Origin: Agarilytica sp.
Lineage (GTDB): Bacteria; Pseudomonadota; Gammaproteobacteria; Pseudomonadales; Cellvibrionaceae
Assembly (NCBI GenBank): GCA_033852165.1
Contig: JAWSUZ010000004.1
Coordinates: 4,692 to 68,691, forward strand
Direction: 5' to 3'
DNA: 64,000 bases
The position numbers and the translations under genes were made by a program. This document shows, piece after piece, positions 2,880-48,476 of this stretch. Every line of letters starts with the position of its first letter. Position 1 is the stretch's first letter. Below the pieces are notes generated by a model that saw only the letters and a list, made by a program, of their open reading frames with translations, was not told the origin of the DNA and ran no database searches.

Positions 2880-3032
2880 ATTTAACAAGCCTCAAAGGAG
2901 AATAAAATGATTGCATGGGTAAAAGGTCAAACGCCCTCCCAGCGTATTATTTTTATTAATTATTTTTGGTGCGACAAAATGTGATTTGATATGCATAAAT
3001 CTACATAACGCTATTTAGATTAGTAGAGGATT

Positions 3033-3060
3033 TAGACCTAGGTCGTACGACTAAGGTCTA
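3033..3060. promoter_or_regulatory. 28-bp near-perfect palindrome made of two CrbR/ErdR-like boxes upstream of phaZ
   Basis: TAGAC-CTAG-GTCGT-ACGAC-TAAG-GTCTA. Each half resembles TAGAC-N4-GTCTA. About 155 bp upstream of the phaZ start. Confidence 0.6.
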
Positions 3061-31040: not shown

Positions 31041-33407
31041 TTAATACTCATAGCCTAGAGTTAGAGTGATAGTGCGAGGATCGCCGTAGTAGCCGAGGAT
31101 TGCATCTTCGCCCGCTGTAGCTGGGAAGTTGTATCCGCCTGTACGATACTCTTCGTCAGCAAGGTTTTTGCCGCTAAGAATAGCTGTCCAGCTCTCTTCT
31201 GGAGATTTCCAAACTACGCTAGCATCGATTAGGTCATAGCTTTCCTGATCGATGATAGATTCAGTAGCTTCAAACATGCGAACATCATCACGGAATGAGT
31301 ATGCAATATTGAATTGCAAGCTGCCAGAGCTGCCAATATCGAGATTGTAAGAAGTTGCGAGTTGGAAGTTCATGTCGGGAGCGTTCTGCATGCCCCATGC
31401 TTCATAAAAAACACCATTCACAGTATTGTCGTTTGCTCGGTTTATGACGGTTAGTACTGGGTCGCCATCTCCGTTAACTGCACCGGTGGGAACTGTTTCG
31501 TCAACTGTGTCGAACTCGGCATCTAGCAGGCCTAGAGCCATGTTGATTGTCCAACTTTCAGTCGCTTGGAATGTAGCTTCAAGTTCAAGACCTTGGATTG
31601 TTGCTTCACCAGCGTTCACTACTGTCGACGAGAAGAATGATGGAGCGGGAGCCGGTGATTGAACAGTAACTTGCATGTCCGTGTAATCGGTATAGAAGAG
31701 TCCCAAGTTCAAGCGTAAGCGATTATCAAAGAGTTGAGTTTTTAGGCCTGTTTCATAAGTGACTACAGTTTCTGGGTCGAAACCTTCGACTGCATTTGGC
31801 TCAACAACTGCATCGGTACGCATATCAAATCCGCCAGACTTAAAGCCCTCAGAGTAAGATACGTATACTAAAGTCTCATCATTCAACTTGTAATCAAGTT
31901 TAATGGTGGGAGAAAACTCATTCCATGAATCATTCATGTCATTTTTATCAAAGTCTGTACGTGTAGCTACAAGCGTATCGTACTGGGCTAAGCCATGTGT
32001 TAAAGCTGAACCTTGGCTAGTTGTGCCTGGTATGGAGTTAGCTGTAACAATAAAGAATCGTTGAGCGAGTGCAGATTTTTCATCTCTTGTGTAGCGACCG
32101 CCGGCAGTTAGGGTTAATGAATCTGTGAAACTCCAGTTAACATTAACGTAAGCCCCGGTACTTTCGGTGTCAACTTCGCCGTTAACGCCGTTGCTGAATG
32201 CGCTGCCATCAAGAATTGCTCCTGAGAAATGACCAAATAGGGCATCAAATGCGCCAGTTGCAGTGCCGTCGTAGTAGAATAGGCCACCAACGATAGCAAG
32301 GCTATCCATTGTGTAGTTAATCTGTACTTCAGCTGTAGTTTGCTCGTCATTGTAAAATGCAGGAATGTCAAAAGAATCTAGTGGGGTACCGTCGAAGTCG
32401 ATAAACGTTTTAGTTGAGCCTGAGCGGTTAGCCAACACAAACTTTGATGAAAGTTCGTCGGTAATATCATATTGAACAGTTAAAGATACGCCTCGAGACA
32501 GAACTTCTTGCTCTTCAGTCATTCCACACTCTGAATCATAAACAGATTCGCGAGGTCCAAAAAATTCACCGTTAGGTCCGGCAACAGTGTTGTCCGCGAA
32601 ACGCGAACCACAACGGCTGTTTGAAGTATCTTCAAGAGCGTCAGCGGCTACGCGAATAAATAAAGAGTCGGTCGGAGAGTATTCAACAGAAGCTCGTGCC
32701 GCTTTAACGTCTTTATTGTAGTTTTCTTCTGTACGGTTGAAAGTTTGGTCAGCAGGGTCGTAGTCTTTATATTGAGTGCCGAAGCCGTCTCTTTTCAAGA
32801 TGCCAACTGCAAAGCCAAAATACAGCTCATCTTCGATAAGAGGTATTTGGTTAGCGACTTTAATGTCGTTTTGACCTGCAGTACCAACAGCAACTTTAAC
32901 GCTACCGCTGTGCTCGCCAGTCATTTTCTTAGTGATGTACTTAATCGCGCCACCAATGGTGTTTTTACCGTAAAGAGTACCTTGTGGTCCACGAAGGATT
33001 TCTAAACGCTCTAGATCCATAAGATCCATAACCGCGCCTTGAGGGCGAGCGATGTAAACGTCATCCAGATAAACACCGACGCCTGGCTCGAAACCCCAAA
33101 GAGGATCTTGTTGGCCGATACCACGGATGAACGCAGTAAGAGTAGAGTTAGTACCACGGCTAGCGCGCAATTGTGCGTTAGGAGTACTTTTTTCGATATC
33201 GATGATAGTTGATGCGCCAGCAGCTTCTAATTGAGCTGGAGAGAACGCAGTAATAGCAATAGGAACTTCTTGTAGGTTTTGCTCACGCTTCTGAGCAGTA
33301 ACAATAACTTCTTCTAGCTGAGGAGCTGCGAAAGTTGGTACCGAGATCGGTAACGCAATCGCCACTGCAACCGCAAGCGGATTTAAAAGTAATTTAGTTT
33401 TTTTCAT
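31041..33407 (-). CDS. TonB-dependent receptor
   Basis: Signal peptide, LEEVIVTAQKRE, plug motifs FIRGIGQ and LEILRGPQGTLYGKN, C-terminal LGYEY. Confidence 0.95.
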   Translation of the reverse strand: MKKTKLLLNPLAVAVAIALPISVPTFAAPQLEEVIVTAQKREQNLQEVPIAITAFSPAQLEAAGASTIIDIEKSTPNAQLRASRGTNSTLTAFIRGIGQQDPLWGFEPGVGVYLDDVYIARPQGAVMDLMDLERLEILRGPQGTLYGKNTIGGAIKYITKKMTGEHSGSVKVAVGTAGQNDIKVANQIPLIEDELYFGFAVGILKRDGFGTQYKDYDPADQTFNRTEENYNKDVKAARASVEYSPTDSLFIRVAADALEDTSNSRCGSRFADNTVAGPNGEFFGPRESVYDSECGMTEEQEVLSRGVSLTVQYDITDELSSKFVLANRSGSTKTFIDFDGTPLDSFDIPAFYNDEQTTAEVQINYTMDSLAIVGGLFYYDGTATGAFDALFGHFSGAILDGSAFSNGVNGEVDTESTGAYVNVNWSFTDSLTLTAGGRYTRDEKSALAQRFFIVTANSIPGTTSQGSALTHGLAQYDTLVATRTDFDKNDMNDSWNEFSPTIKLDYKLNDETLVYVSYSEGFKSGGFDMRTDAVVEPNAVEGFDPETVVTYETGLKTQLFDNRLRLNLGLFYTDYTDMQVTVQSPAPAPSFFSSTVVNAGEATIQGLELEATFQATESWTINMALGLLDAEFDTVDETVPTGAVNGDGDPVLTVINRANDNTVNGVFYEAWGMQNAPDMNFQLATSYNLDIGSSGSLQFNIAYSFRDDVRMFEATESIIDQESYDLIDASVVWKSPEESWTAILSGKNLADEEYRTGGYNFPATAGEDAILGYYGDPRTITLTLGYEY

Positions 33408-33715
33408 GATGCACACCTGTGTGGTTATCTATTAGTTGATGTTTTATTTTTTTGATGATGTGTTTATCCGGAGCATTCTAATGCTATTCCACTTCTTGCA
33501 GCAAGCTTAAATATCGTGTCTTTTTTAATTTACTGTTTACTAATAAATGATGCTCACGACGCACCTGCAGCAAATCTGATCATTAATTAACCTTATTTTT
33601 AATTTTCTACTGTTTTCTAAAATTCACTTCACTCAAGGTTGTAGCGGAACTACACTCATCACTCGTTAACACTATCTTTAACAATAAAAGTAAATAGATT
33701 TTTAAAAGGCCAATT

Positions 33716-35026
33716 ATGATTAGTGTGTTGGGATTAATAACGGCGCTTGTGTTGCTCGTAATTTTAACGATCCGCGGAATGAATTTGATGATTGCGGCGC
33801 CATTCTGTGCGATTCTTGTTGCATTGACCGGGGGTTTGCCAATTATTCCTGATGTTACGCAGACTCAAAGCTTTATTACTGTGTATATGGATGGCTTTGC
33901 TGGGTTCCTTGGCGCATGGTTCTTTATGTTCTTGCTGGGTTCTTTGTTCGGTAAGTTTATGGAAGAATCGGGCGCTGCCGATAAAATCGCGTTAACAATT
34001 GTTGATTGCCTGGGAATGAAAAACGCCGTTGCGGCAATTATTATTTCTTGCGCGATTATGACTTATGGCGGTGTTAGCTTATTTGTTGTGGCGTTTTCCG
34101 TTTACCCAATGGCTGTCAGCTTATTTAAAAAGGCGGACTTACCACGCCGGTTTATTCCTGCTGCGATGGCTTTTGGTTCTGTAACTTTTACGATGACTTC
34201 AGCGGGATCGCCAGAAATTCAAAACTGGATTCCGATTAAGTATCTGGGTACTACCCCGTATGCGGCATGGGAAGTTAGCTTGTTTGTCGCGATCTGTATG
34301 GCGTCTTTTGGCTTTTGGTGGCTAAGTCGTATGGTTAAAAGTGCTCTTGCTAAGGGGGAGACGTTTTCTGCGAGAAAGGATGACCCAGAGCCAAAGGACT
34401 TGGATTCCCTTCCTCCTTTTTGGGCTTCTATTGTTCCGATCATCACGGTATTGATTATCACGTTTATCTTTCATGAGGAATACGCGCAATATTCGCTGGT
34501 TATGTCTTTGGCCTCCGGCTGCCTGGCGGCTTGGTTTGTGACCCATCGCAGTATGGAGGGCTTGGATCGGGTTGTGGCACAGGGCACAACTGGAGCCGTT
34601 ATTGCGATTGCGAATACTTCGGCGGTTGTTGGTTTTGGGTCGGTAGCGAAAGTCTCACCGGCATTTGATATAGCGGTTGATGCTATTACTAGCTTGCCGG
34701 GCAACGAGCTGATTGGTGCGGCGATTGCGGTAACGTCTATTGCTGCTATGACGGGGTCAGCATCCGGTGGTCAGAGTATTGCGTTACCGGTATTGGCGCC
34801 ACACTATTTAGACGCCGGTGTTGATCCGGAGGCATTGCACCGAGTTGTGGCGATATCGTCCGGGGCTTTGGATAGTTTGCCTCATAACGGCTATGTGGTG
34901 ACTACAATTCGAGCAATTTGTCATGAGACACACAAGGCTGCATATGGCCCCATGGCCGCATTGACGGTGGTTATTCCTATGATGGGAACCATTTTAGCTC
35001 TTGCCTGCTTCATTCTATTTGACTAA
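33716..35026 (+). CDS. GntP-family permease, probable D-3-hydroxybutyrate permease
   Basis: LLGSLFGKFMEESGAA, LTYGGVSLFVV, AGSPEIQN, GSASGG, DSLPHNG; context. Confidence 0.88.
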   Translation: MISVLGLITALVLLVILTIRGMNLMIAAPFCAILVALTGGLPIIPDVTQTQSFITVYMDGFAGFLGAWFFMFLLGSLFGKFMEESGAADKIALTIVDCLGMKNAVAAIIISCAIMTYGGVSLFVVAFSVYPMAVSLFKKADLPRRFIPAAMAFGSVTFTMTSAGSPEIQNWIPIKYLGTTPYAAWEVSLFVAICMASFGFWWLSRMVKSALAKGETFSARKDDPEPKDLDSLPPFWASIVPIITVLIITFIFHEEYAQYSLVMSLASGCLAAWFVTHRSMEGLDRVVAQGTTGAVIAIANTSAVVGFGSVAKVSPAFDIAVDAITSLPGNELIGAAIAVTSIAAMTGSASGGQSIALPVLAPHYLDAGVDPEALHRVVAISSGALDSLPHNGYVVTTIRAICHETHKAAYGPMAALTVVIPMMGTILALACFILFD

Positions 35027-35240
35027 TTAGTTCCGTCACTAAGTGGACGGCCAATGCGAGCGCATTGAAAGCGCTATCTATGCACCGCTGGATATTGTTG
35101 CTTGGAATGACTAACGTGGTCATAACTGGCGGTGCAAATCCATTATGTTCAATCAGCTCTTGCTATACCCTTGTGGTATCGGCGGGTACCAGCTAACTGT
35201 ACATGAGAGTTTTGTTCGGTTAAGGTTTTCGGTAACTACG

Positions 35241-35279
35241 AAGCCGGTATTCAATTGCTTTGAATGCTGGCTTTTTTTT
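35241..35279 (+). terminator. Strong intrinsic terminator
   Basis: 14-bp stem AAGCCGGTATTCAA / TTGAATGCTGGCTT followed by a T run. Confidence 0.8.
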
Positions 35280-35363: not shown

Positions 35364-37412
35364 ATGGTGCTAAATAGTAAGGGCTATAGGCTGTCGTTAT
35401 TCGTCCTGTTTTCCGCGGTGATTTTTACGTCATGTGCTGTCTCACCTGTGAAGTCTAGCAACGGGCAAGCTCAACACCGTACGGCCTTTATGTTGGGGGG
35501 CGTCTCAAAGCTCTACTATGATGGAGAGTTTAATGACCTAGCCTATGGTGGCTTGGGTCTTGATGCTATTCGTAATGGTGAGGCGCCTGTTGTTTCCGAC
35601 CCGCTACGTCCTTCGATCTCTGATTTACGCCGTTTGGCGATCTATCACAATATTCGTTCATTGTCTGCGATGTCGGATAATGCCGGTTATGGCTCTCTTT
35701 ACGCCAATTTTGATCTAGCTGCTAGCCCGGTTAGCGGTTACGAATTTATTGCTCCTTTACTCTTTGATGATGGCCAAGTTGCCTCTGTTTTCATGCTTCA
35801 GGTACCCGATAATTTTGATTGGGACCATCCTTGCCTTATTTCGGCGGCGTCCTCCGCATCACGAGGAATATACGGAGCTATAGGGGTTGTAGGGCTTTGG
35901 GGCTTGGATAAAGGCTGTGCGGTGGTGCATTCTGACAAGGGCACTGGTACAGGGTTTTACTGGTTAAGTGATGATCAAACAGTTGATGTAAGTGGGCAGA
36001 TTAATAAGCCCAATGAAAATTCTCATTTTATTGTCGATAATGTCAAACAGTTTGCTCAGGCTTACCCAAACAGGGTCGCAACAAAGCATGCGCATAGCCA
36101 AAGAAATGTGGGGCGACACTGGGGAGGGGCAGTTCTATCGTCAATAGAGTACGCATTCGAGTTGCTCAATTCTGAATTTGGCGGACAGAAAAGGTTAACG
36201 CCGGAAAATACATTGGTGATTGGGGCGGGGATCTCGAACGGAGGAGGGGCTGTAGTTGTTGCTGCCGAACAGGATAAATCGCAATTTTTCGACGGGATAG
36301 TTTTGGCCGCGCCGAATATTCCGGTACCGGCTGGATATGAGTATCAATATAAAAGTGGCGAAGCAAGGAGTAGACGAGCTGCTCAGGAGACTCGTTCCCA
36401 CAGGGTGACCGTACTTGTCGAAGTGGGTTTTAATCTGGCGCTTTACTTGCCTTGCGCTGCTTTGTTTAGTGGAGAGCCCACCCATCCTGAGGGTCTGAAC
36501 GCTCATTGGCAGGCATTACTTGAAACGAGATGCAATAAACTCAAAGCTGCCGGTTTATTGTCTGGAAAGTCCTTTCGGGAGCAGAGCTTTGAATCTCTCC
36601 AGGTTTTAATACGTAGGGGGTATCCTGAAAGCGCAAATACCATGGCAACAACATTTGCACGCAATTTGTTATGGAATTCTTTAATGCTGAGCTACACCAG
36701 TGATTTGGGAGGGTATGGGGTTGGCGATCATTTATGTGATTACAGCTATGCCTATGCAAACTCCGAGGGGGAGCCTATCGTCACTCCTGATGAGGTAAAG
36801 GCGCTAGTTTTTGGTCGAACCCGGGGCAGCTTGCCAGCGTTGGGTATTCAGATTATGAACGACGCCAGTGCAGATGGCCCACGTGATCTTATGCATTCAG
36901 TTGATGCGGATGGTGTATTGGATTTGGGCTTTGATAATGTCATGTGCATGGAAAAACATTTGTTCTCTAAGCGTGTGCAAGACGGGTTAACGGCCATTCA
37001 AGCCTCAGGTAATTTGCAGGGGCTTCCCGCAATTATTGTGCATGGCGAAGCCGACAATATCATTCAGGTTAGAAATACGTCGCGAGCCTATGCCGTATTA
37101 AACTCTGAAGTGGAAGATAATTCTTCTTTGGTTTATTACGAGGTTAAAAATGCGCAGCATATTGACCGGCTGATTGATTACCCTCCATATAAAACGCAAT
37201 ACATCCCCTTGCAGTTCTATTTCGAAGAAGCGCTCGACTCTATGTATGAACACCTAACCGAAGGTACAGCTATTCCCGCGAGCCGTGAAATTTTAACGGT
37301 TCCGGCTACCGAGAAGGAAGAAAAGTTGACACGTAAAAATTTACCCTCTATTACTTCTGGTAATACGAACCCTATCGAAATTAAAAGTGGAGTTTTGGTT
37401 TTTGCCAATTAA
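35364..37412 (+). CDS. D-(-)-3-hydroxybutyrate oligomer hydrolase, probable lipoprotein
   Basis: Lipobox-like FTSC; RRLAIYHN, SSASRGIYGAIG, SDKGTG, ATKHAHSQ, ISNGGG, IIVHGEAD, QHID. Confidence 0.9.
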   Translation: MVLNSKGYRLSLFVLFSAVIFTSCAVSPVKSSNGQAQHRTAFMLGGVSKLYYDGEFNDLAYGGLGLDAIRNGEAPVVSDPLRPSISDLRRLAIYHNIRSLSAMSDNAGYGSLYANFDLAASPVSGYEFIAPLLFDDGQVASVFMLQVPDNFDWDHPCLISAASSASRGIYGAIGVVGLWGLDKGCAVVHSDKGTGTGFYWLSDDQTVDVSGQINKPNENSHFIVDNVKQFAQAYPNRVATKHAHSQRNVGRHWGGAVLSSIEYAFELLNSEFGGQKRLTPENTLVIGAGISNGGGAVVVAAEQDKSQFFDGIVLAAPNIPVPAGYEYQYKSGEARSRRAAQETRSHRVTVLVEVGFNLALYLPCAALFSGEPTHPEGLNAHWQALLETRCNKLKAAGLLSGKSFREQSFESLQVLIRRGYPESANTMATTFARNLLWNSLMLSYTSDLGGYGVGDHLCDYSYAYANSEGEPIVTPDEVKALVFGRTRGSLPALGIQIMNDASADGPRDLMHSVDADGVLDLGFDNVMCMEKHLFSKRVQDGLTAIQASGNLQGLPAIIVHGEADNIIQVRNTSRAYAVLNSEVEDNSSLVYYEVKNAQHIDRLIDYPPYKTQYIPLQFYFEEALDSMYEHLTEGTAIPASREILTVPATEKEEKLTRKNLPSITSGNTNPIEIKSGVLVFAN

Positions 37413-37415
37413 CGT

Positions 37416-40400
37416 ATGCTAAGCCAAGGTTATATTGCTCTCTGGTCGATTGGGTATCTGTGTATACTTTTTGTAATTGCGTTTTGGGGGGATAGTCTTC
37501 GGGAGCAGGCGATTCGCCGGTATAAGCCTATAATTATTGGTTTGGCGGTTACCGTTTATTGCAGTGCATGGAGCTTTCATGGTGTAGCTGCTCAGGCTGT
37601 TAGTAAAGGGTGGTATTTTCCTCCTACCTTTCTGGGGGCCATTCTATTGCTAGTCTTTTTCTGTCCCTTAATAAAAAAACTAATCGCGGAGAGTAAGCGA
37701 GCGAATATCACGTCCATTGCAGATTACCTGTCAGTGAGCTACGGAGGTTCCCGTACTCTCGGTGTTTTAATTACACTGGTTTCTATAGTGGTTTTGGTTC
37801 CTTATCTTGCTTTGCAATTGAAAGCGATTACTCAGAATTATCATTTGCTGGCAAGAGCTGAATTACCGTTTGATCAAGCTTTCACAGAAACCACCCACAT
37901 GGGTACGGCTTTTGTTGTTGCTCTCTTGTTGGGGGCTTTTGCCATGATTTTTGGCTCTCGCAACCAAGACGTTAGGGAGCATCATAATGGTTTAATGTTG
38001 GCTATTGCATTTGAATCGATAGTTAAGCTGGTGGCTTTTGTTGTATTGGCCTTGTTTGTATCGATGGTTATGTATGACGGCCTGGAAGATATTTTTTTCC
38101 AGGTGGCGCAAAATGATGTTTTGATGAAAGAACTCGTTGAGAGGCGTGAAGGTGATGGCGGTTACCTCACCGCCATGATATTGGGTTGTATTGCTATGGT
38201 GTGCTTGCCCAGACAGTTTCATGTGCTGGTTGTCGAGAGTGAAAATCCAAGTGATATTAATACCGTCCGCTGGCTTTTCCCTGTGTACCTGCTCGTTTTT
38301 GGTATGTGTGTTTTACCTGTAGCGTATGCGGGCATGCTGCTTTTTCATGACTTGGGAATTAGTTCTGACCAATATGTTTTAGGGATTCCACTAATTGCTG
38401 GCCGAGTTGACTTGGCTCTTCTAACCTATTTGGGTGGTTTTTCAGCGGCCAGTAGCATGGTGATTTTAGCTTGCGTTGCGATGTCGACAATGGCGTCTAA
38501 TGAGCTGGTTATCCCTTTTTTATCTCGCTTCAATTTAATTGATTTACAGAATAAAAATAGAGCGCATCGCACAATTAGAACGGTTCGTCGTTACGTTATT
38601 TTCACCTTGCTTTTGTTAGCGTATGGGTATTATCGATTACTTGGTAATCAGGCAAGTTTAGGTGCTATTGGCTTTTTGTCATTTTCTTTGGCCGCTCAAT
38701 TTTTCCCATGTTTGTTTTTCAGCTTGATATTAAAGTCAGATCGAAGGAGTGAATTGGCCGTTTCTGCAATTGTTGGTATTGCCGTGGGGTTAGGGGTTTG
38801 GTGTTACACCTTATTTCTTCCCGCGTTAGTGGATGCTGGGTTTCTTTCTCAGCAGTTTTTAGATGAAGGACCGTTTGGGGTTTCATGGTTGAGACCAACG
38901 GCGTTATTTGGCTTTGAGATTTTTAGTGATTTATCACATGGTGTGTTCTGGAGTTTATGGGCGAATGTAGTCAGTTTTATTTGCTTGTCGAAAAGTCCCT
39001 TAGCCTACTTTCGGGATGCGACGTTTAGCGAGGGGCGTGCAGCCACAATGCTTGAGTTAAAGTTATTATTGACGCGCTTTTTAGGCGTTGACCAGACTGA
39101 GTTAGCGTTGAAGGAATACCCTAAGTTGGCGGCTGCGCGCGGCTACGCAGATAGCGGCGATGTCAGCGTGGTCGAAAATATTCTTTCCGCTGTGGTGGGT
39201 TCAATATCAGCGCGAAATATTATTGAAACATCTTTTACGGGTGAAGCTGAAAATGAAAAGTTGCTGGATAAGGCCGCGCAAATATTTCAGTTTGGACGAG
39301 AATTGCTGCAGGAAAGTATCGATAATATTAGTCAGGGCATTAGCGTTGTTGATTCACAGTTAAAAATGGTTGCGTGGAATCGTGGTTATTTAGATATCTT
39401 TGAGTACCCGAAAGGCATGATGCACGTGGGCTGTAATGTGGCGGACTTACTTCGTTATAACGCAATATTAAATGGCCTGGAAGGGGGAGAGGTTCAGCAC
39501 TTTATTGATAAACGCTTGAAGTTAATGGCTTCAGGCAGTGCCTATATTCATATCTACACACATTACACTGGACGGGTATTGGAAATCCAAGGGGCTCCTA
39601 TGGGAGAGGGAGGTTTTGTAACAACCTTTACCGATATTAGTAACTATCAAGAAACGGTTAGCACGTTAGAGGAAACGAGGGCAACCCTAGAGTCTCGCGT
39701 GAAGGAACGGACAGAAGAACTGCAGTTAGCAAATCGAAAATTACGTGATGCAAACCATAAAAAAACACATTTTTTGGCTGCTGCTGGGCACGATTTGATT
39801 CAACCTCTAAATGCCGCAAAGTTGTTTGCCACAGCACTGACCCATAAAGTAAAGGACCCTGAAACCACAAAGCTTCTTCACAATTTAGATCACTCTCTTC
39901 ATTCTGCAGATGCGATTATTAGTGAGCTCCTAGCGATTGCGAAACTGGATTCCGGGGAAATGCAGGTCAACGCGAAAACATTTTGTATTGGGGATCTACT
40001 GCGTTCGCTGCATAAGGAATTTTCTATCATTGCGCAAAAGAAGAATATTGAACTGCGTTTTTGCTATAGCTCTTTGGCAGTGACAACGGATGAGCAGTTA
40101 TTGAAACGAATTTTGCAAAACCTTTTATCAAATGCTATTCGCTATACCAATACAGGTAAAGTGATCATTGGTTGTCGGCGGTCGAAAACCACCAGTTGCA
40201 TTGAGGTGTGGGACCAAGGAAAAGGCATTCCCGAAAAAGAGGAAGAGAATATATTCAAAGAGTTTCATCGAATAGATAAAAACGAGCAAGACGGTGGCTT
40301 AGGTCTGGGCTTAGCAACTGTGCAGCGTTTGTGTCAGTTACTCGAAGTGAAAATCAAAGTGGAGTCTAAGGTTGGCCAGGGCAGTGTGTTTCGTATCGTG

Positions 40401-40862
40401 CTGCCGCGCACAGAAAAACGATATGTGTCTGCGTTAGATGGCGATGAGCAGGCTTCTCCTCGTGAATCTGTTTTGTCGGGGATGAGGGTTCTGTGTATCG
40501 ATAATGAAAGTACTATTCTTGATGGTATGAAGGCTGTGTTGGAGACTTGGGGTTGTGTTTTTTATGGGGTGACGGAGTGGTCGGATATTTTACCGTGGGA
40601 GCCGGATGCTTTACTTGTGGATTTTCATTTAAACGACGGTATTACCGGTATTGAATTAGCTGAGCGATTTCACGCTAAATATGGGGATGTTAAGCCGATC
40701 GTGGTGATTTCTGCAGATCAGAATAATGATGTTAGAGAGCAGGCAAAGTCGCGGGCTTATTTCTTTTTAAGAAAGCCGCTCAAGGCGGCTTCTCTTTGGT
40801 CTGTGTTGGCGCGTATCAATGATATGAAAAGCCTTGAGGGAACCGTTGCTCCTCGTCAATAA
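37416..40862 (+). CDS. crbS: SLC5(SSS)-STAC-PAS-histidine kinase-receiver hybrid sensor (CrbS/MxtR type)
   Basis: VYCSAWSF, SIADYLS..YG, LPRQFHV; STAC-like LLTRFLG..SAVVGSISAR; PAS; AGHDLIQPLNAA; C-terminal receiver. Confidence 0.9.
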   Translation: MLSQGYIALWSIGYLCILFVIAFWGDSLREQAIRRYKPIIIGLAVTVYCSAWSFHGVAAQAVSKGWYFPPTFLGAILLLVFFCPLIKKLIAESKRANITSIADYLSVSYGGSRTLGVLITLVSIVVLVPYLALQLKAITQNYHLLARAELPFDQAFTETTHMGTAFVVALLLGAFAMIFGSRNQDVREHHNGLMLAIAFESIVKLVAFVVLALFVSMVMYDGLEDIFFQVAQNDVLMKELVERREGDGGYLTAMILGCIAMVCLPRQFHVLVVESENPSDINTVRWLFPVYLLVFGMCVLPVAYAGMLLFHDLGISSDQYVLGIPLIAGRVDLALLTYLGGFSAASSMVILACVAMSTMASNELVIPFLSRFNLIDLQNKNRAHRTIRTVRRYVIFTLLLLAYGYYRLLGNQASLGAIGFLSFSLAAQFFPCLFFSLILKSDRRSELAVSAIVGIAVGLGVWCYTLFLPALVDAGFLSQQFLDEGPFGVSWLRPTALFGFEIFSDLSHGVFWSLWANVVSFICLSKSPLAYFRDATFSEGRAATMLELKLLLTRFLGVDQTELALKEYPKLAAARGYADSGDVSVVENILSAVVGSISARNIIETSFTGEAENEKLLDKAAQIFQFGRELLQESIDNISQGISVVDSQLKMVAWNRGYLDIFEYPKGMMHVGCNVADLLRYNAILNGLEGGEVQHFIDKRLKLMASGSAYIHIYTHYTGRVLEIQGAPMGEGGFVTTFTDISNYQETVSTLEETRATLESRVKERTEELQLANRKLRDANHKKTHFLAAAGHDLIQPLNAAKLFATALTHKVKDPETTKLLHNLDHSLHSADAIISELLAIAKLDSGEMQVNAKTFCIGDLLRSLHKEFSIIAQKKNIELRFCYSSLAVTTDEQLLKRILQNLLSNAIRYTNTGKVIIGCRRSKTTSCIEVWDQGKGIPEKEEENIFKEFHRIDKNEQDGGLGLGLATVQRLCQLLEVKIKVESKVGQGSVFRIVLPRTEKRYVSALDGDEQASPRESVLSGMRVLCIDNESTILDGMKAVLETWGCVFYGVTEWSDILPWEPDALLVDFHLNDGITGIELAERFHAKYGDVKPIVVISADQNNDVREQAKSRAYFFLRKPLKAASLWSVLARINDMKSLEGTVAPRQ

Positions 40863-40974
40863 GTGGCAAAGGTTAATTTAACTGATGCTTTTCTTCAAAA
40901 ATCCTTGGCTTTCAAAAAACTTTAGGGTGTCTTTAAAAATTGTGATTTTTTGTGAGGGCAAGGAAATACCACGC

Positions 40975-41135
40975 GGACACTAGCATGGATGCCAGTGCCA
41001 GGTCGCAGCATTAGCGCAGGAAGCGCGTAAGTAGAATAACGCAGGAGCAGTTATCGAGGAAGCCCGGTCCGAGAGTCTCAGTGTACATGGTGTACACCGG
41101 AAATCGAGTACGGAGCCGATGCCGTCATCGCTAAA
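40975..41135. repeat. REP-like hairpin cluster between the convergent kinase and regulator genes
   Basis: ACTAGCATGGATGCCAGT, AACGCAGGAGCAGTT (reverse complement of 18917-18931), GTGTACATGGTGTACAC. Confidence 0.7.
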
Positions 41136-41157
41136 AAGTATTTTTTAGAAATGCCCT

Positions 41158-41802
41158 TTAGTCGTTAGCAGGACTTTCAAATTTTTGTGAAAGTAAAATA
41201 ACTTCAGTGCGTTTTCTCAAGCCCAATTTCCGTAAAATCGCGGTTACATGGGATTTGACTGTCGTTTCAGTAATGTCGAGTTCAAAGGCAATTTGTTTGT
41301 TTAGCATGCCTTGGCTGAGCATTGAAAAAACACGAAATTGGTGCGGCGTCAGTGAGGCAACGCGACGAGCTATGTCTTTCAGTTCCTCATCTTCTTCGCT
41401 TATTGTTTTATCAAACCAGGGTTTGCCTTGAAGAAGGTCGCCAATCACTTTTTCCAGTTCGTTTGCATCTAAAGATTTAGAAAGAAAGCCGATTGCGCCG
41501 AGCTGCTCTGCATGGCTGATCACTTTTTGACTATTGTCCCCAGAAATCATTGCAACAGGGACTTCGGGAAAGTAGCCGCGCAAATTGACTAAACCGGCAA
41601 ATCCGTTGGTCCCGGGCATATGCAGGTCGAGAAGTACAAGGTCGGGATCAACATCTGACTCCAAATAGCTGTGAACTTCTTTAATGGTGTTGCATGAAAT
41701 ACATTCAACTTTTTGGGGTAAATTACTAAAATTATTAATCGTTTGTATAAGTGCGCTACGAAACAGCGGGTGATCGTCCGCGATGATAATTTTTATTGTC
41801 AT
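41158..41802 (-). CDS. LuxR/NarL-family response regulator (CrbR/ErdR type)
   Basis: IIADDHPLFRSAL, LLDLHMPG..GF, LTPHQFRV...LNKQIAFEL..TVKSHVTAILRKL. Confidence 0.9.
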   Translation of the reverse strand: MTIKIIIADDHPLFRSALIQTINNFSNLPQKVECISCNTIKEVHSYLESDVDPDLVLLDLHMPGTNGFAGLVNLRGYFPEVPVAMISGDNSQKVISHAEQLGAIGFLSKSLDANELEKVIGDLLQGKPWFDKTISEEDEELKDIARRVASLTPHQFRVFSMLSQGMLNKQIAFELDITETTVKSHVTAILRKLGLRKRTEVILLSQKFESPAND

Positions 41803-42000: not shown

Positions 42001-42921
42001 TTATGACTGTAAGGGTGTCGGGTTTGAGGAACGGGAGGATGGCCACATTTCAAGGATGACCTCCTCAAGCGCTTTAGCCGCTACAGATAACGGATAGCGC
42101 CGCCTTGTAATAATTCCTACTTTAGGTTGAATGGCAGAGCCTTCGATTTCTCGGCATATAGCCCCCATCTCTTCCATTTGTTCTTTGCATAATGCCGGGA
42201 CAGCGCTGACGCCTAAGCCTTTTGATACCAATCTGCCGATGGTTGCCAGCTGGTTGGTTTCAAACGAGACAGATAGGGATAAGGCATGCTTTGTCAGGGT
42301 ATTTTCGAGCAGTGTTCGCATATTGGCTGGCTTTTGGAGTGTGATAAACCCGGATTCTAAAAGAAACTTCCAGCTAATAGTGGAAGGGGCAAGGTTCTCC
42401 ATGGATCGTGGTAATACGGCAATAAAGCGATCTTGAAATATTGGAGTAAAACTCAAATCCTCACTCTTTCCCGGGTCAAATATTATCCCGATTTCGACTC
42501 GGCCGGATCTGACCAGTTCGAGTACTTGTTCCGCGACGACATCTTGAACGCTGATATTCACCGATGGGTGCTGTTTTTTGTATTCTACAAATACAAGGGG
42601 TAGCTGGTTACAGGCAAAAGAAGGCATAGCAGCAATTGAAATCTTTCCCCGTCTTAGTAAAAAGTGATTGCGCACATTTTCGATAGCGGTATCCCAGTCA
42701 TTTAAGAGCCTCTTGGCGACAGGCAGAAACTCCCTACCTTCTGGCGTCAATGAGAGCGTTCGTGTTGTTCGGGTGAGTAAGGGGCCGCCTATGTCCGTCT
42801 CTAGATTTTTGATCGATATGCTCAATGCTGGTTGAGATAAATTGATCGAGCTGCACGCTTCGGCAAAGCTCTGGCTGTTGGCAATGGCTACGAAAGCCCT
42901 TATTTGCTTGATTGTGCTCAT
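42001..42921 (-). CDS. LysR-family transcriptional regulator
   Basis: N-terminal HTH SFAEA...LSQPALSISIKNLE; divergent from bdhA. Confidence 0.93.
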   Translation of the reverse strand: MSTIKQIRAFVAIANSQSFAEACSSINLSQPALSISIKNLETDIGGPLLTRTTRTLSLTPEGREFLPVAKRLLNDWDTAIENVRNHFLLRRGKISIAAMPSFACNQLPLVFVEYKKQHPSVNISVQDVVAEQVLELVRSGRVEIGIIFDPGKSEDLSFTPIFQDRFIAVLPRSMENLAPSTISWKFLLESGFITLQKPANMRTLLENTLTKHALSLSVSFETNQLATIGRLVSKGLGVSAVPALCKEQMEEMGAICREIEGSAIQPKVGIITRRRYPLSVAAKALEEVILEMWPSSRSSNPTPLQS

Positions 42922-43320: not shown

Positions 43321-44079
43321 ATGAGCAAAACCGTATTTGTGACCGGAGCAGCCAGTGGTATCGGTCAATCAATCGCTGAAAGATTTGCAAAAGAGGGCCA
43401 TAAGGTCATCGTAAGTGACTTGAACATGGTGGGAGCACAAGACGTTTGTGACAAGCTAACCGCTGAAGGTCTTGCAGCTGAGCCTTATGAATTAGATGTT
43501 AGCAATATGGAAGCAATTGCAAAAGTGGGTACGGATTACCCTAATATTGATATCTTGGTTAACAACGCCGGTATCCAATTCGTAGCGAAAATCGAAGAAT
43601 TCCCAGCAGATCGCTGGAGTTTGTTGACCAATATTCTCTTGGTTGGTCCCGCTATGCTGACGCGTGCAGTCATTCCGGGAATGAAAGAACGAAACTATGG
43701 CCGAATTATCAATATCGGCTCAGTTCACGGCTTGATCGCATCGCCGTATAAAAGCGCCTATGTTGCAGCTAAGCATGGCCTGATAGGCTTTTCTAAAGTG
43801 ATCGCTTTAGAGACCGGTGAGTTCGATATCACAATCAATACTATTTGCCCTTCTTACGTTAAAACGCCTCTTGTTGAGAAGCAAATTGCTTCAACAGCTA
43901 AAGAGCATGGTATTAGTGAAGAAGAAGTGGTGAATAACATTATGTTAGCGCCTATGCCTAAGAAGGCATTTATTTCACTGGAAGAGCTTGCTGAAACAGC
44001 ATTGTTCTTGATGTCTCCAGCGGCGAGAAATATCACTGCTCAGACAATGGTTCTTGATGGTGGCTGGGTCGCTCGCTAG
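43321..44079 (+). CDS. bdhA: D-3-hydroxybutyrate dehydrogenase
   Basis: TGAASGIG, NNAGIQFV..IEEFP, SVHGLIASPYKSAYVAAKHG, CPSYVKTPLVEKQI. Confidence 0.93.
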   Translation: MSKTVFVTGAASGIGQSIAERFAKEGHKVIVSDLNMVGAQDVCDKLTAEGLAAEPYELDVSNMEAIAKVGTDYPNIDILVNNAGIQFVAKIEEFPADRWSLLTNILLVGPAMLTRAVIPGMKERNYGRIINIGSVHGLIASPYKSAYVAAKHGLIGFSKVIALETGEFDITINTICPSYVKTPLVEKQIASTAKEHGISEEEVVNNIMLAPMPKKAFISLEELAETALFLMSPAARNITAQTMVLDGGWVAR

Positions 44080-44400: not shown

Positions 44401-44475
44401 ATACACTTCACATCCGTATCGTTCTCAAAGATTCGGCTCTTGCAATTTCCATCTCCAAACTCTCAGTGGTCTCCA

Positions 44476-46263
44476 ATGAATACAGAAGACAAGCACAAGA
44501 TTTTAGATTACGTCGATAAGTTTAGCGGCGTTTTTAACAATATGATGGAAGAAGTTACCCGGCGCTTGATGACGAATCAGTCGGATTCTAACTTTGAGAG
44601 CGTAATTAAAGTCCCAGATGTTAACTCTCAAGAGAAAGCTTCTAGTGTTAAAATTGACCCCAAGCGCTTTGTGAGCCAGCAGTTAAAATTTCTGGAAAAA
44701 CAAAAACAACTTTTGGAAAATGCCTCGAAGGTCTTTTTGGGGGAAGAGTTTGTTCCCGTTATTAAGTCAACCAAGGGCGATAAGCGATTTAGTGATGACG
44801 ACTGGACGGGTAACCCAGCATTTAACTATATCAAGCAAGCGTATTTACTCAATGCTGAATACATGAACCAGTTTGTCGATGCGCTTGAATTTGAAGATAA
44901 GAGTATTGAAGATCAGGTGCGCTTTTATACGCGGCAGTTTATTAATTCGATGTCTCCCACCAATTATGTTCTAACTAACCCTGAGGTTTGCAGAGAAATC
45001 CTTGCTACAGATGGGCAAAACCTGGTCAAAGGTATCGATAACTTCATGCGGGATCTAAAAGATAGCCCAAAGGAAGTGTTTAGGGTGACCCAGGTCAATA
45101 AAGATGCTTTTGAACTCGGGAAGGATTTAGCTTATACCCCTGGAAAGGTGATTTTTGAGAACGAATTGATTCAATTGATTCAATACACGCCAACGACAGA
45201 ATCTGTGTACGAAATACCGTTATTGCTCATTCCCCCCTTTATCAATAAGTACTACGTCCTGGATCTTGATCAAAAGAAATCCATGGTTGCCTGGTTAGTG
45301 GGGCAGGGTTTTACCGTTTTCATAGTTTCATGGATTAACCCGGACGACTCCTTTAGGGACTTTCCATTCGATGATTATATTAATAAGGGTGTAATTACAG
45401 CGCTAGATGTTGTTGAGCATATCAGTGGGCCAGAGGTTAATCTTGTTGGCTACTGTGTCGGCGGCACGCTTTTGGGGATTACCCAGTCTTACCTGACCAC
45501 TCAGGATGATACGCGTATAAAGTCCTTAACCTTTTTGGCGACTCTTTTTGACTTCTCTGAGCCAGGCGAAGTGGGTACTTACCTTACGAACCAGCTTATC
45601 CCAATGCTGGAAAAGTCCGTGACTGAAAAAGGTCTCCTTGACGGGCGAATACTCGGGCTTGGTTTTAGCTTACTACGGGAAAACAATCTGTTTTGGTCCT
45701 TCTTCATTGAAAACTATTTGAAAGGGAAGGATCCCGTCCCTTTCGATATCCTTTACTGGAACAGTGATTCGACGAATCTGCCGGCAGAGGCTTTTCTGTT
45801 TTACCTCAGCAATATGTACATTGGAAACAAGCTGATAGAAAAGGGTGGCGTGAGTATCAACAGCACGCCGATTGACCTTTCTACCATCAATGTGCCCAGT
45901 TATTGTCTGGCTGCGCAGGCTGACCACATCGTATTGTGGCAAGCGGCATATAAGAGCGCTAAGATCCTAGGCGGTGATGTCCGCTTTGTCTTGACCGAGT
46001 CTGGTCATGTTGCTGGGGTTGTAAATCCTGCAAGCAAAGGTAAATACGCTCACTGGGTCAGCGCTGAGATGCCTGATGATGCAGCTGGCTGGCTGGCTGG
46101 CGCAACTCAACAGGCCGGGTCTTGGTGGAATGACTGGAATGTCTGGCTAGAAGAGCGTTCAGGTAACAAGGTTAAAGCGAAAAAAATCGGTAATAAAAAA
46201 CGATATCCAGTGTTGGATTCTGCGCCTGGAAGCTATGTTAGGCGACGGCTGGATAACGATTAG
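44476..46263 (+). CDS. phaC: Class I PHA synthase
   Basis: DKRFSDDDW, TPGKVIFEN, PPFINKYYVLDL, GYCVGG, ADHIV, SGHVAG. Start taken at ATG 44476. Confidence 0.96.
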   Translation: MNTEDKHKILDYVDKFSGVFNNMMEEVTRRLMTNQSDSNFESVIKVPDVNSQEKASSVKIDPKRFVSQQLKFLEKQKQLLENASKVFLGEEFVPVIKSTKGDKRFSDDDWTGNPAFNYIKQAYLLNAEYMNQFVDALEFEDKSIEDQVRFYTRQFINSMSPTNYVLTNPEVCREILATDGQNLVKGIDNFMRDLKDSPKEVFRVTQVNKDAFELGKDLAYTPGKVIFENELIQLIQYTPTTESVYEIPLLLIPPFINKYYVLDLDQKKSMVAWLVGQGFTVFIVSWINPDDSFRDFPFDDYINKGVITALDVVEHISGPEVNLVGYCVGGTLLGITQSYLTTQDDTRIKSLTFLATLFDFSEPGEVGTYLTNQLIPMLEKSVTEKGLLDGRILGLGFSLLRENNLFWSFFIENYLKGKDPVPFDILYWNSDSTNLPAEAFLFYLSNMYIGNKLIEKGGVSINSTPIDLSTINVPSYCLAAQADHIVLWQAAYKSAKILGGDVRFVLTESGHVAGVVNPASKGKYAHWVSAEMPDDAAGWLAGATQQAGSWWNDWNVWLEERSGNKVKAKKIGNKKRYPVLDSAPGSYVRRRLDND

Positions 46264-46435
46264 ATCGGTTTTTTAGGATGAAATGACTCGAAAAACTAGG
46301 ATTTAGCGAAAAATCGTTCATACTTTTCTCATATCTCAATGAAGTGGTTATACTCACGGAGCGGAACAAGAAACCCTTTTGAATGTACCGATGTGCCTTA
46401 GGATTGGGCACATTACAGAGATATGAGATATACAC

Positions 46436-46900
46436 GTGATAACGATAAAAAAATACCCCAATCGACGCCTCTACGACACCTCGCAAAGCCAATACATTAA
46501 CCTTGAGACGATACGTGCTCTTGTGATGTCTCATAATGAATTTAAGGTCATTGACTCTAAAACCGAAACGGACCTGACCAAAAGCATACTCCTACAAATT
46601 ATCAGTGAGCAAGAAAATAACGATTCTCAGTCACTGCTTACAGAATCTGTACTCAAGCAGCTCATTCGTTTTTACGGCAGTGAGATGCAGGGCTTTCTTG
46701 GTCAGTATTTAGAGCAAAGTTTGTCCACCTTTATTGATCGTCAGGATACAATGCGCGGTGTGATGCAGGATATGATGGACGCCTCCCCTATGAATGTTTT
46801 CAATCAGATGATGGAGAAGAATATGTCCGTTTGGGGTAGCTTTCCATCACCTGAAGACCAAAAAGAAAAGCCAGACGACAACTCAGAAGATCCCGAATAA
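46436..46900 (+). CDS. phaR: PHA synthesis repressor
   Basis: IKKYPNRRLYDT...LLQIISEQE...LIRFYG. Confidence 0.95.
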   Translation: MITIKKYPNRRLYDTSQSQYINLETIRALVMSHNEFKVIDSKTETDLTKSILLQIISEQENNDSQSLLTESVLKQLIRFYGSEMQGFLGQYLEQSLSTFIDRQDTMRGVMQDMMDASPMNVFNQMMEKNMSVWGSFPSPEDQKEKPDDNSEDPE

Positions 46901-46941
46901 AGGCTCTCACCTATATAGCAATTAAGTATAGCTACGGTTTG

Positions 46942-47013
46942 TGCGTTGCAGCAAAACCCCTTGACGAGCCCTAGGCAGCTTCGTAAACTACGCTTGAATT
47001 TTGCATCGCAGCA
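46942..47013 (+). promoter_or_regulatory. Phasin-1 promoter flanked by two PhaR-type boxes
   Basis: TTGACG-N17-TAAACT (46961-46989); TGC-N3-GCAGCA at 46942 and 47002. Confidence 0.75.
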
Positions 47014-47059
47014 AAAGAAATCACACTACTGATATATAGAGACTACTGAGGAATATATA

Positions 47060-47374
47060 ATGTTAGATAAAATTTTAGAGCAAGCGCAAAAAGCATTCCA
47101 ACCCGATAACGATTTCGTTGCTCGTTCGACTAAAGCGTTCGAAGAAGCTACTGAAAAGCAAAAGACTTTTTTTGAAGGTATTGTCAGTGACAACATGGCC
47201 TTCGTTAAAGAGTTGAGTGCTCAGAAAGACTTTACTGGCTTCTGTGAGCTCCAAAAGTCATATATGCAAAACATCCAAGATAAAATAGCTGCAGCTTCTA
47301 AAGAAGCGTATGAAGCCTTGAGCTCCAGCCAAGAGCAGGCTGGTGGTTTTTTTAAGACAGCTACTACAGCTTAA
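47060..47374 (+). CDS. phaP: Phasin
   Basis: 104-aa amphipathic helical protein downstream of phaR with PhaR-type boxes. Confidence 0.8.
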   Translation: MLDKILEQAQKAFQPDNDFVARSTKAFEEATEKQKTFFEGIVSDNMAFVKELSAQKDFTGFCELQKSYMQNIQDKIAAASKEAYEALSSSQEQAGGFFKTATTA

Positions 47375-47507: not shown

Positions 47508-47580
47508 TGCGACGCAGCGCACATGATTGACCTTTGGTTTTGGGTAGCATAGACTTGGGTCTAAATATTGCAGTGCAGCA
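47508..47580 (+). promoter_or_regulatory. Second PhaR-flanked promoter with a perfect TAGAC-N4-GTCTA over its -10
   Basis: TTGACC-N17-TAGACT (47527-47555); TGC-N3-GCAGC boxes at 47508 and 47569; TAGACTTGGGTCTA at 47550-47563. Confidence 0.7.
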
Positions 47581-47969: not shown

Positions 47970-48476
47970 ATGTACGGTAAAGTATTTGAGCAAGCCGGTT
48001 CATTTTTTAAGCCAATGGCTGAAATTATTGAGTTGAACACGGAAATTTTTGAGTCGTTGAGAACCAAACAGACTGATTTTGTGCAAGAAGTTGTTGCTGA
48101 TAGTATTGAGTATGCGAAGGGTTTTAGTCAGCCCAGCGCCGACATTGATACTTTTGTTGGTGCTCAGCAAGCGTACTGGGAAGGTATAAGGGCTAAATTA
48201 ACGTCAAATGCACAAGATAGCTTAGAGCTTATCACTGATGCGCGTGGCAAAGTGGGAGGTTTGATTAAGGGGGCATGGGACGCAAATGCTGTCGCAGTCA
48301 CTGATGTTGCCAATACAGCTGAACCTGTTGATGTTGCCAATGTAGCTGAATCTGTTGATGTTGCCAATGCAGCTGAACCCGTTAAGGCTCCGTCTAAGAA
48401 AAAGCTTACCGGGAAGAAAGCGGCTCTTAAGGCTAAAGCGGCAAAAGCAACGGCAGAGTCAGGCATCTCTGAGTAG
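47970..48476 (+). CDS. Phasin with repeat-containing, Lys/Ala-rich C-terminal tail
   Basis: Phasin-like N-terminus; 3 x DVANxAE(P/S)V; KKKLTGKKAALKAKAAK. Confidence 0.72.
   Translation: MYGKVFEQAGSFFKPMAEIIELNTEIFESLRTKQTDFVQEVVADSIEYAKGFSQPSADIDTFVGAQQAYWEGIRAKLTSNAQDSLELITDARGKVGGLIKGAWDANAVAVTDVANTAEPVDVANVAESVDVANAAEPVKAPSKKKLTGKKAALKAKAAKATAESGISE
48303..48383 (+). repeat. 27-nt coding tandem repeat x3
   Basis: GATGTTGCCAAT...GCTGAA.C.GTT at 48303, 48330 and 48357. Confidence 0.9.

Follow-up and report, generated by a model that had tools for sequence, protein, structure and literature searches.

A 64,000-nucleotide stretch of the Agarilytica sp. genome (contig JAWSUZ010000004.1, positions 4,692 to 68,691; hereafter the window) encodes a CrbS-like hybrid sensor kinase (37416–40862, plus strand, 1148 residues) and, convergent with it, a response regulator with a receiver (REC) and a LuxR/GerE-type DNA-binding domain (41158–41802, minus strand), which together probably, though by no means certainly, make up a two-component system which split from CrbS/CrbR and now serves as a sensor of extracellular poly(3-hydroxybutyrate) (PHB) utilisation. 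The kinase gene directly follows that of a 3-hydroxybutyrate (3HB)-oligomer hydrolase (35364–37412, plus strand), and comparative genomics suggests that the kinase reports 3HB rather than acetate. The locus is therefore presented here as a candidate regulator of extracellular PHB use, and the kinase as a candidate for a new functional variant within the SLC5/STAC kinases.

The TAA stop codon of the hydrolase occupies positions 37410–37412 and the kinase ATG begins at 37416, as seen in both the open reading frame map and the sequence, so that the junction reads TAA-CGT-ATG with a spacer of 3 nt. PAS_7, HisKA, HATPase_c and REC domains are recognised in the kinase by Pfam, while its N-terminus gives no match to the Pfam SSF family even at E ≤ 1. 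A profile of residues 1–620 built from 19 sequences matches the SLC5-STAC structure of CbrA (PDB 10ed_A) with an E-value of 2.3e-108, the alignment spanning query residues 3–616 and chain residues 6–592. An AlphaFold (AF2) model has a predicted local distance difference test score (pLDDT) of 82.6, and its top 30 matches in the PDB are all SLC5 transporters with TM-scores of 0.5–0.6, among them NIS, SGLT, SMCT1, CHT1, SiaT and vSGLT. Profile and fold search thus agree on an N-terminal SLC5 domain of 13 transmembrane (TM) helices, that is, a solute:sodium symporter of the LeuT fold. The four-helix STAC domain between the transporter and the PAS domain is assigned from the profile, which reaches query residue 616, because the single-sequence alignment ends at residue 473; in CbrA the domain comprises residues about 518–590 (PMC13488458), and the AF2 model has helices at 545–607. 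Finally, the kinase has intact N, G1 and G2 boxes along with His792, Asp1069 and Lys1120, and H792, D1069 and K1120 are kept in 41 of 41 relatives, which together with the PAS-HisKA-HATPase core and the C-terminal receiver is the make-up of a CrbS/MxtR hybrid kinase.

The initial annotation of this DNA had described the 3-nt spacing, the SLC5-STAC-PAS-HK-REC architecture and a LuxR-type regulator convergent across a cluster of repetitive extragenic palindromic (REP) elements, and all three descriptions hold. The 295-nt spacer between kinase and regulator contains an element of ~52 nt at about 41009–41060 with 47 further blastn matches across the genome, and the REP cluster is therefore real; many of the matches stand in tandem with a period of ~69 nt, for example at C27:1792-2050 and C37:4929-5115, and the repeat resembles a REP element or a bacterial interspersed mosaic element (BIME). 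That annotation had also treated the locus as one without context, whereas the genes lie within a full PHB/3HB cluster with the order TonB-dependent receptor, GntP permease, hydrolase, kinase, regulator, LysR-type regulator, 3-hydroxybutyrate dehydrogenase (Bdh), PhaC, PhaR and two phasins.

The hydrolase belongs to Pfam 3HBOH (PF10605), a family that goes back to enzymes of Ralstonia pickettii and Acidovorax, with a match over its full length (E 7e-149, positions 8–685 of 688; 497.6 bits against a cut-off of 27), and S291 within an ISNGG motif, D564 and H599 are invariant among 10 orthologues and are candidates for the catalytic Ser, Asp and His. Its leader ends in Cys24, a column that is nearly invariant among the orthologues, and the protein is therefore predicted to be a lipoprotein.

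The association of hydrolase and kinase is conserved well beyond this genus. Among 101 sampled Cellvibrionaceae genomes the hydrolase is present in 13, and in each of the 13, spread over 6 genera, it lies directly upstream of the best kinase match and in the same orientation, even where identity is as low as 34% between the hydrolases and 43% between the kinases. Such adjacency is conserved far beyond chance. All 13 loci, that of the window included, hold the same block of a TonB-dependent receptor, a permease-hydrolase-kinase row and the regulator, and a 14th locus (genome G055) has every part of the block except the hydrolase, which has been lost; the 14 loci are called clade A below, after the phylogeny of their kinases. 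In the window the outer-membrane receptor (31041–33416, minus strand; Pfam Plug and TonB_dep_Rec_b-barrel) is divergent from the permease (33716–35026, plus strand), a member of the GntP/ion-transporter superfamily (Pfam GntP_permease, 6e-15) and a candidate 3HB importer. The receptor holds the same position in 14/14 clade-A loci, and the permease is 65–96% identical across all 14 and 65% identical in a related locus from another family (G125). The gap between permease and hydrolase is 9–13 nt in most other genera, and that between hydrolase and kinase is less than about 110 nt in all loci but one. The regulator is the only transcription factor conserved throughout the 14 clade-A loci, a second group of loci (clade C) and the G125 locus, and the block persists over the 6 genera while the flanking genes differ. 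Two of the Cellvibrionaceae loci carry the names Simiduia litorea and Exilibacterium.

Outside the family the two genes part company. In 300 genomes of the order, the hydrolase was found beyond Cellvibrionaceae in a Marinobacter-like genus and in one other genome, never next to the kinase, and an SLC5 kinase stands beside the hydrolase in only two, both from Cellvibrionaceae, of the best 80 hydrolase loci from other genomes. The coupling is lineage-specific. In the Marinobacter loci (L056-L098) the hydrolase heads a conserved four-gene row that continues with a Bdh-like gene and a distant acs relative (26–28% identity, perhaps an acetoacetyl-CoA synthetase); no sensor kinase is found in that row.

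The kinases of these loci form a lineage of their own. All 19 receptor-linked kinases, comprising clade A, clade C and the one from G125, fall into one clade with 100% support in the Shimodaira–Hasegawa-like approximate likelihood ratio test (SH-aLRT), within which the G125 kinase is the sister to clades A and C. Outside it stand those kinases of this family, and of ten others in the order, that have a true acs orthologue (57–71% identity to the acs of this genome) at their loci; the window kinase does not group with these acs-linked CrbS proteins. The canonical set consists of 23 kinases with 33–38% identity. Most have a regulator as neighbour, and for about half acs is adjacent as well, frequently accompanied by DUF485 and by genes of ActP size; CrbS/R has been published with this layout. 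A pair of that canonical kind is also found in 11 of the 14 clade-A genomes, and in most of these acs adjoins it.

The separation extends to the presumed ligand-binding pocket. The histidine contacts and the Na2-site lysine of CbrA were mapped from its structure (PMC13488458) through the alignment. The Y-x-S/T-x-W motif of TM2 (S50 in the window kinase) and the Na2-site lysine (K204) are kept in all CrbS-like proteins; in CbrA the serine at the TM2 break contacts the carboxylate of the substrate (PMC13488458). The counterpart of His257 of CbrA is R266 in the CrbS-like proteins. Seven positions (51, 53, 69, 71, 72, 253 and 257) consistently set clades A and C apart from acs-linked CrbS, with Thr in place of Ile at 71, Gly in place of Ala or Ser at 257, Ala in place of Gln or Glu at 253, Ala in place of Ser at 51 and Ser or Met in place of Thr at 53. 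Judged from the alignment, these differences would fit a different, somewhat larger hydroxy-acid ligand.

The phylogeny bears directly on whether the protein is an ordinary CrbS/MxtR, which would sense acetate, other short-chain fatty acids or a metabolic consequence of them, would stand at a 3HB locus as 3HB feeds acetyl-CoA metabolism, and would simply be the one CrbS of this genome. The window kinase is indeed the only full-length CrbS-type kinase there, and its partner is the sole ErdR-like regulator above 100 bits; the architecture and the GAC-N4-GTC operator core (see below) are those of CrbS/CrbR, and MxtR/ErdR has been reported to act on several short-chain acids, an orthologue being stabilised by acetate through valerate (bioRxiv 10.64898/2026.09.07.749794). 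Against this reading, the one acs of the genome lies on another contig, with no ACTU-type box (KAC-N4-GTM) in the 400 nt upstream of it, and no protein passes the family cut-off for ActP, so that an acetate regulon is not evident from the sequence, and control of acs and actP through ACTU boxes is not seen in this genome. Moreover, 11 of the 14 clade-A genomes retain a separate pair from the canonical acs-linked lineage, the clade itself is monophyletic, its inferred pocket positions differ, and the operator described below is found at PHB/3HB genes and not at acs. Taken together, an ordinary CrbS seems improbable.

The initial annotation had noted that acs and actP are absent from the window, as is the case, and had taken the kinase for a paralogue, a second CrbS copy that senses 3HB or its oligomers. 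The copy is single in this genome, and the comparison with acs-linked CrbS that was suggested to settle the question places it in a distinct lineage. That interpretation is thus supported in part, by the lineage, the synteny, the operator and the pocket, and needs correction on three points, namely the lack of a second copy, the context that it had missed and the operator missing from the locus itself. Like this genome (in which the region upstream of acs is G000 contig C8, 87862-88262), the sister species G008 has no canonical CrbS/CrbR, whereas the whole set, with ActP and a boxed acs, is kept in 11 sister genomes; from these gene inventories the acetate switch looks to have been lost in this lineage. 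The other SLC5 kinase of the genome belongs to a CbrA/CbrB-like pair (L009:9140-13679, contig C16) between a gluQ-like gene and pcnB, a placement as in Pseudomonas; the CbrA-like protein has 988 residues and SLC5-STAC-PAS-HK architecture and matches the CbrA structure at E 6e-145, and the CbrB-like partner is a sigma-54 activator. CbrAB has been called unique to Pseudomonadaceae in a 2022 review, yet this genome belongs to Cellvibrionaceae.

A candidate operator would connect the regulator to the polymer. A 14-bp palindrome, TAKACCWWGGTMTA, is present in the spacer between receptor and permease of 10 of the 14 clade-A loci, in two copies in nine and in one copy in the remaining one, and the ten spacers are otherwise unalignable. 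The acs promoters of canonical loci contain 2–4 ACTU boxes of the type CGACYWWTGTCTAA; the ACTU motif is the published CrbR/ErdR site and is required for CrbR activation (PMC5715377). Both motifs share a GAC-N4-GTC core and differ at their inner and outer positions, and these differences parallel clade-specific ones in the helix-turn-helix (HTH) region of the regulators, where the window protein carries the clade signature. Its best NCBIfam model is ErdR (NF041830), with 214 bits and thus under the cut-off of 390. A position weight matrix (PWM) was built only from spacers in the clade-A loci of other genera. Within the loci of 15–19 kb, sites of at least 18 bits occur only in the receptor-permease spacer of clade A and in the receptor-kinase spacer of clade C, where 4/4 loci have one copy (19.8 bits); the matrix finds no strong operator in the G125 locus. 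Looser patterns searched over the window (KAC-N4-GTM, or the 14-mer when 2 mismatches are allowed) are no more frequent than chance predicts and were rejected; single sites are therefore no evidence, and only PWM enrichment and positional clustering count.

By that standard, the extracellular depolymerases of this genome do give a signal. Sites of at least 12 bits stand upstream of 5 of the 28 depolymerase paralogues, against an expectation of 0.25 (Poisson P about 7e-6), and they cluster in position, four at -167 to -187 and one at -299. In the window, a double operator of two abutting TAGAC-N4-GTC-type palindromes (3033–3060; 13.4 and 9.9 bits) lies about 167–181 nt upstream of the ATG of a depolymerase gene, and sites precede three paralogues at a similar distance (-168 to -187). 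The gene in question (3–2888, minus strand) runs past the left end of the window and has at least 962 codons; it encodes an extracellular short-chain-length polyhydroxyalkanoate (scl-PHA) depolymerase that carries a pair of catalytic domains along with fn3 linkers, scoring 358 bits on NF050058 (e_dPHAscl_type1; cut-off 150) in two stretches and 313 bits on TIGR01840, with Pfam Esterase_PHB and fn3 matches. Two further operator-bearing paralogues reach 155 and 173 bits on NF050058, where the same cut-off of 150 applies. The only depolymerase homologue of genome G021 has two upstream sites of 16.2 bits each, the only one of Simiduia litorea has a site of 16.7 bits, and in G008 a site precedes one depolymerase paralogue, which brings the genomes with the palindrome upstream of extracellular PHA depolymerase genes to four in total.

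The depolymerase family itself is strikingly expanded here, with about 28 distinct genes found by tblastn, many of them two-domain, on contigs C97 (five tandem copies, about 955-22319), C9, C43, C15, C77, C116, C109 and others; the sister species G008 has 31 matches, two other family members one each and two none.

Several observations weigh against the proposed PHB sensor. The operator is absent from the locus of this genome, where no site reaches 4 bits in any spacer between 33417 and 47059, and it is likewise missing from the receptor-permease and every other locus spacer in the nearest relatives of this genome, G008 and G055. In addition, a strong hairpin resembling an intrinsic terminator (35240–35274, plus strand; 15-bp stem and T run) separates the permease from the hydrolase-kinase pair in this genome, so that a feedback loop deduced from other genera may not operate here; the sensor may instead be expressed constitutively in this lineage and control only depolymerases. 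Only 5 of the 28 depolymerase paralogues have a site, and the regulon is not cleanly defined, since the top PWM hits precede unrelated genes. The assignment of the operator to this regulator is putative and draws on the likeness to the ACTU box and on co-occurrence. The counts of conserved loci overstate independence because the genomes compared are related. Finally, MxtR/ErdR is reported to govern several short-chain acids and may read metabolic state (bioRxiv 10.64898/2026.09.07.749794), and the clade-A system could likewise read metabolic state and not one ligand.

Some of these points would also be met if the palindrome were bound by another regulator and the pair controlled something else, the synteny then reflecting co-inheritance of a mobile catabolic island. 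Three genomes do retain the pair without an operator at the locus, and some high-scoring sites do precede unrelated genes, but no transcription factor other than this regulator is conserved in the 14 clade-A loci, clade C and G125, the palindrome closely resembles the site that experiments defined for the paralogous regulator (PMC5715377), and the block is kept across 6 genera in differing surroundings. Such a dissociation of pair and palindrome appears very unlikely. The other top genome-wide PWM hits were considered as a regulon and rejected, as MatE, DEAD helicase, SSF transporter, FHA, GGDEF-EAL and MarR genes make no coherent set. In place of the operator, positions 33417–33715 of the window and the equivalent spacers of G008 and G055 hold other conserved elements: close to the start of the receptor gene a palindrome, AGCATT-CT-AATGCT, and in addition a block with the sequence GCGGAACTACAC and a direct repeat, TTTAATTT..ACTGTTT..CTAA, that occurs twice.

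A mechanism for the proposed PHB sensor can be outlined as follows. Secreted scl-PHA depolymerases would release 3HB oligomers, which the TonB-dependent receptor would take into the periplasm; there the lipoprotein hydrolase would cleave them to 3HB, and the GntP-type permease would import 3HB for Bdh. The SLC5 domain of the kinase would bind periplasmic 3HB and act as a transceptor, as CbrA does with histidine, and the signal would pass via STAC and PAS to His792 and the phosphoryl group onward to the regulator. The phosphorylated regulator would bind the TAKACCWWGGTMTA palindromes and activate the depolymerase genes, and in most genera it would also activate the receptor and the permease-hydrolase-kinase operon, giving positive feedback. 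The ligand of the kinase (3HB, an oligomer or another compound), the direction of regulation and the substrate of the receptor are the parts of this scheme that we infer.

The signal may also differ from periplasmic 3HB in the SLC5 pocket within what would still be a PHB-pathway system: dimers or oligomers of 3HB, the flux that the permease or the SLC5 domain carries, or a cytoplasmic metabolite (acetoacetate, acetoacetyl-CoA or 3HB-CoA) sensed by the PAS domain. The kinase does have a well-conserved PAS_7 domain, in CbrA the PAS domain as well as the SLC5 domain has been put forward as binding histidine (PMC13488458), and the tight coupling to the oligomer hydrolase (13/13) and to the TonB receptor points to oligomers as the species that enter. 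Two lineages, however, keep the kinase, permease and receptor without the hydrolase, and in the comparison made, which covered positions of the SLC5 pocket, that is where the changes specific to the clade are concentrated. The gene content of G055, which lost the hydrolase, and of G125, which has none, fits monomer sensing better than oligomer sensing. A signal of another kind is considered unlikely, if somewhat less so than an ordinary CrbS.

More tentatively, clades A and C may represent an undescribed class of polyester/ester utilisation locus in marine Gammaproteobacteria, a proposal that we hold to be quite possible yet short of even odds. In such loci a transporter-kinase fusion would read the carboxylate released by a dedicated hydrolase and induce that hydrolase together with a permease, the secreted depolymerases and a TonB-dependent importer of oligomers; the hydrolase and permease would have been swapped at least once, with 3HBOH and GntP in clade A and Abhydrolase_3 and a major facilitator superfamily (MFS) transporter in clade C, while the operator was kept. 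The clade-C loci (genomes G039, G079, G099 and G047; L023-L026, e.g. L024:5296-14669) have the order TonB receptor, then kinase, MFS transporter and Abhydrolase_3 esterase, then LuxR regulator. The G125 locus (L159, 3400-11836), from another family of the order, has the order receptor, kinase, regulator and permease with bdh nearby, and its identity to the window is 49% for the TonB receptor, 50% for the regulator and 65% for the permease; no 3HB-oligomer hydrolase is found in the G125 genome. If the class is real, no signal-transduction system dedicated to extracellular PHB degradation would have been known before it, and nature would have supplied two nearly identical sensors that differ in their ligands.

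A sister clade tied to 3HB that coexists with an acetate-linked copy in the same cell bears on what CrbS/MxtR kinases sense. As few pocket positions differ, the two lend themselves to a clean comparison of how ligands are bound, how specificity can be swapped and how paralogous pathways stay insulated. The locus offers a candidate sensor, regulator and operator along with a TonB-dependent route for polyester oligomers, which bears on marine bioplastic turnover, and the kinase-regulator pair could serve as a 3HB biosensor.

The remainder of the cluster lies downstream of the regulator. A LysR-type regulator gene (42001–42921, minus strand), present only in the loci of this genus, is divergent from bdh (43321–44079, plus strand; TIGR01963, 342 bits against a cut-off of 307), which is followed by genes for a class I PhaC, PhaR and a phasin (44440–47374, plus strand; TIGR01838 with 697 bits, TIGR01848 and TIGR01841) and by a second phasin (47970–48476). 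Between the two phasin genes stands a perfect palindrome, TAGACTTGGGTCTA (47550–47563; 11.1 bits), a possible further operator that as a single site is not above chance on its own.

Described SLC5/STAC systems comprise CrbS/R, which responds to acetate and, as recently found, propionate, CbrA/B (histidine) and RpuS/R (pyruvate; PMC9100948). The closest to the pair described here is CrbS/CrbR (MxtR/ErdR, AcmS/R) of Vibrio, Pseudomonas and Acinetobacter, with which it shares the succession of domains (SLC5-STAC-PAS-HisKA-HATPase-REC), a neighbouring NarL/LuxR-type partner with ErdR as its top model, the GAC-N4-GTC core and a presumed role related to monocarboxylates. In contrast, the window kinase belongs to a separate clade (100% SH-aLRT), and its partner scores 214 bits where the ErdR cut-off is 390. 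The clade-A operator is a symmetric TAKACC-WW-GGTMTA and the ACTU box reads CGACY-WW-TGTCTAA; the inferred pocket has T71, G257 and A253 in clade A against Ile, Ala/Ser and Gln/Glu; and clade A is linked to a TonB receptor, a GntP permease, the hydrolase and PHA depolymerases, whereas CrbS is linked to acs and actP. CbrA/CbrB of Pseudomonas (PDB 10ed, PMC13488458) is homologous over the whole SLC5-STAC length (profile E 2e-108) and has the same Y-x-S-x-W motif in TM2, the Na2-site lysine and the transceptor concept in common with the present kinase, but CbrA has no REC domain, works with a sigma-54 activator and responds to histidine, and this genome has a CbrA/CbrB of its own on contig C16. 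That one genome can hold an additional SLC5/STAC kinase and LuxR regulator has a precedent in RpuS/RpuR of Sinorhizobium fredii (PMC9100948), which is specialised for another monocarboxylate, pyruvate, and controls the adjoining transporter gene; it is from another lineage, its target is MctP and it has no hydrolase, TonB receptor or polymer link.

In the literature searched, no description was found of an SLC5/STAC kinase tied to a 3HB-oligomer hydrolase, a TonB receptor or PHB depolymerases, nor of a dedicated regulator of extracellular PHB depolymerase expression or oligomer uptake; a preprint on a two-component system for PHB in Cupriavidus concerns an unrelated, VsrBC-like system. The hydrolase of the window belongs to the extracellular 3HB-oligomer hydrolase family by its full-length match (E 7e-149) and secretion leader, and among the 80 best relatives from other genomes it is unlike those from Marinobacter, many Betaproteobacteria and other groups in that no SLC5 kinase adjoins the latter, as one does in Cellvibrionaceae. 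The overall logic of a depolymerase, a TonB importer, a periplasmic hydrolase, a permease and a product sensor is that of the SusC/D polysaccharide utilisation loci of Bacteroidota with their hybrid two-component systems (HTCS). There the likeness is one of analogy only, as the substrate here would be a polyester instead of a glycan, the sensor is a transporter-kinase fusion instead of an HTCS with a periplasmic domain, and SusD has no counterpart.

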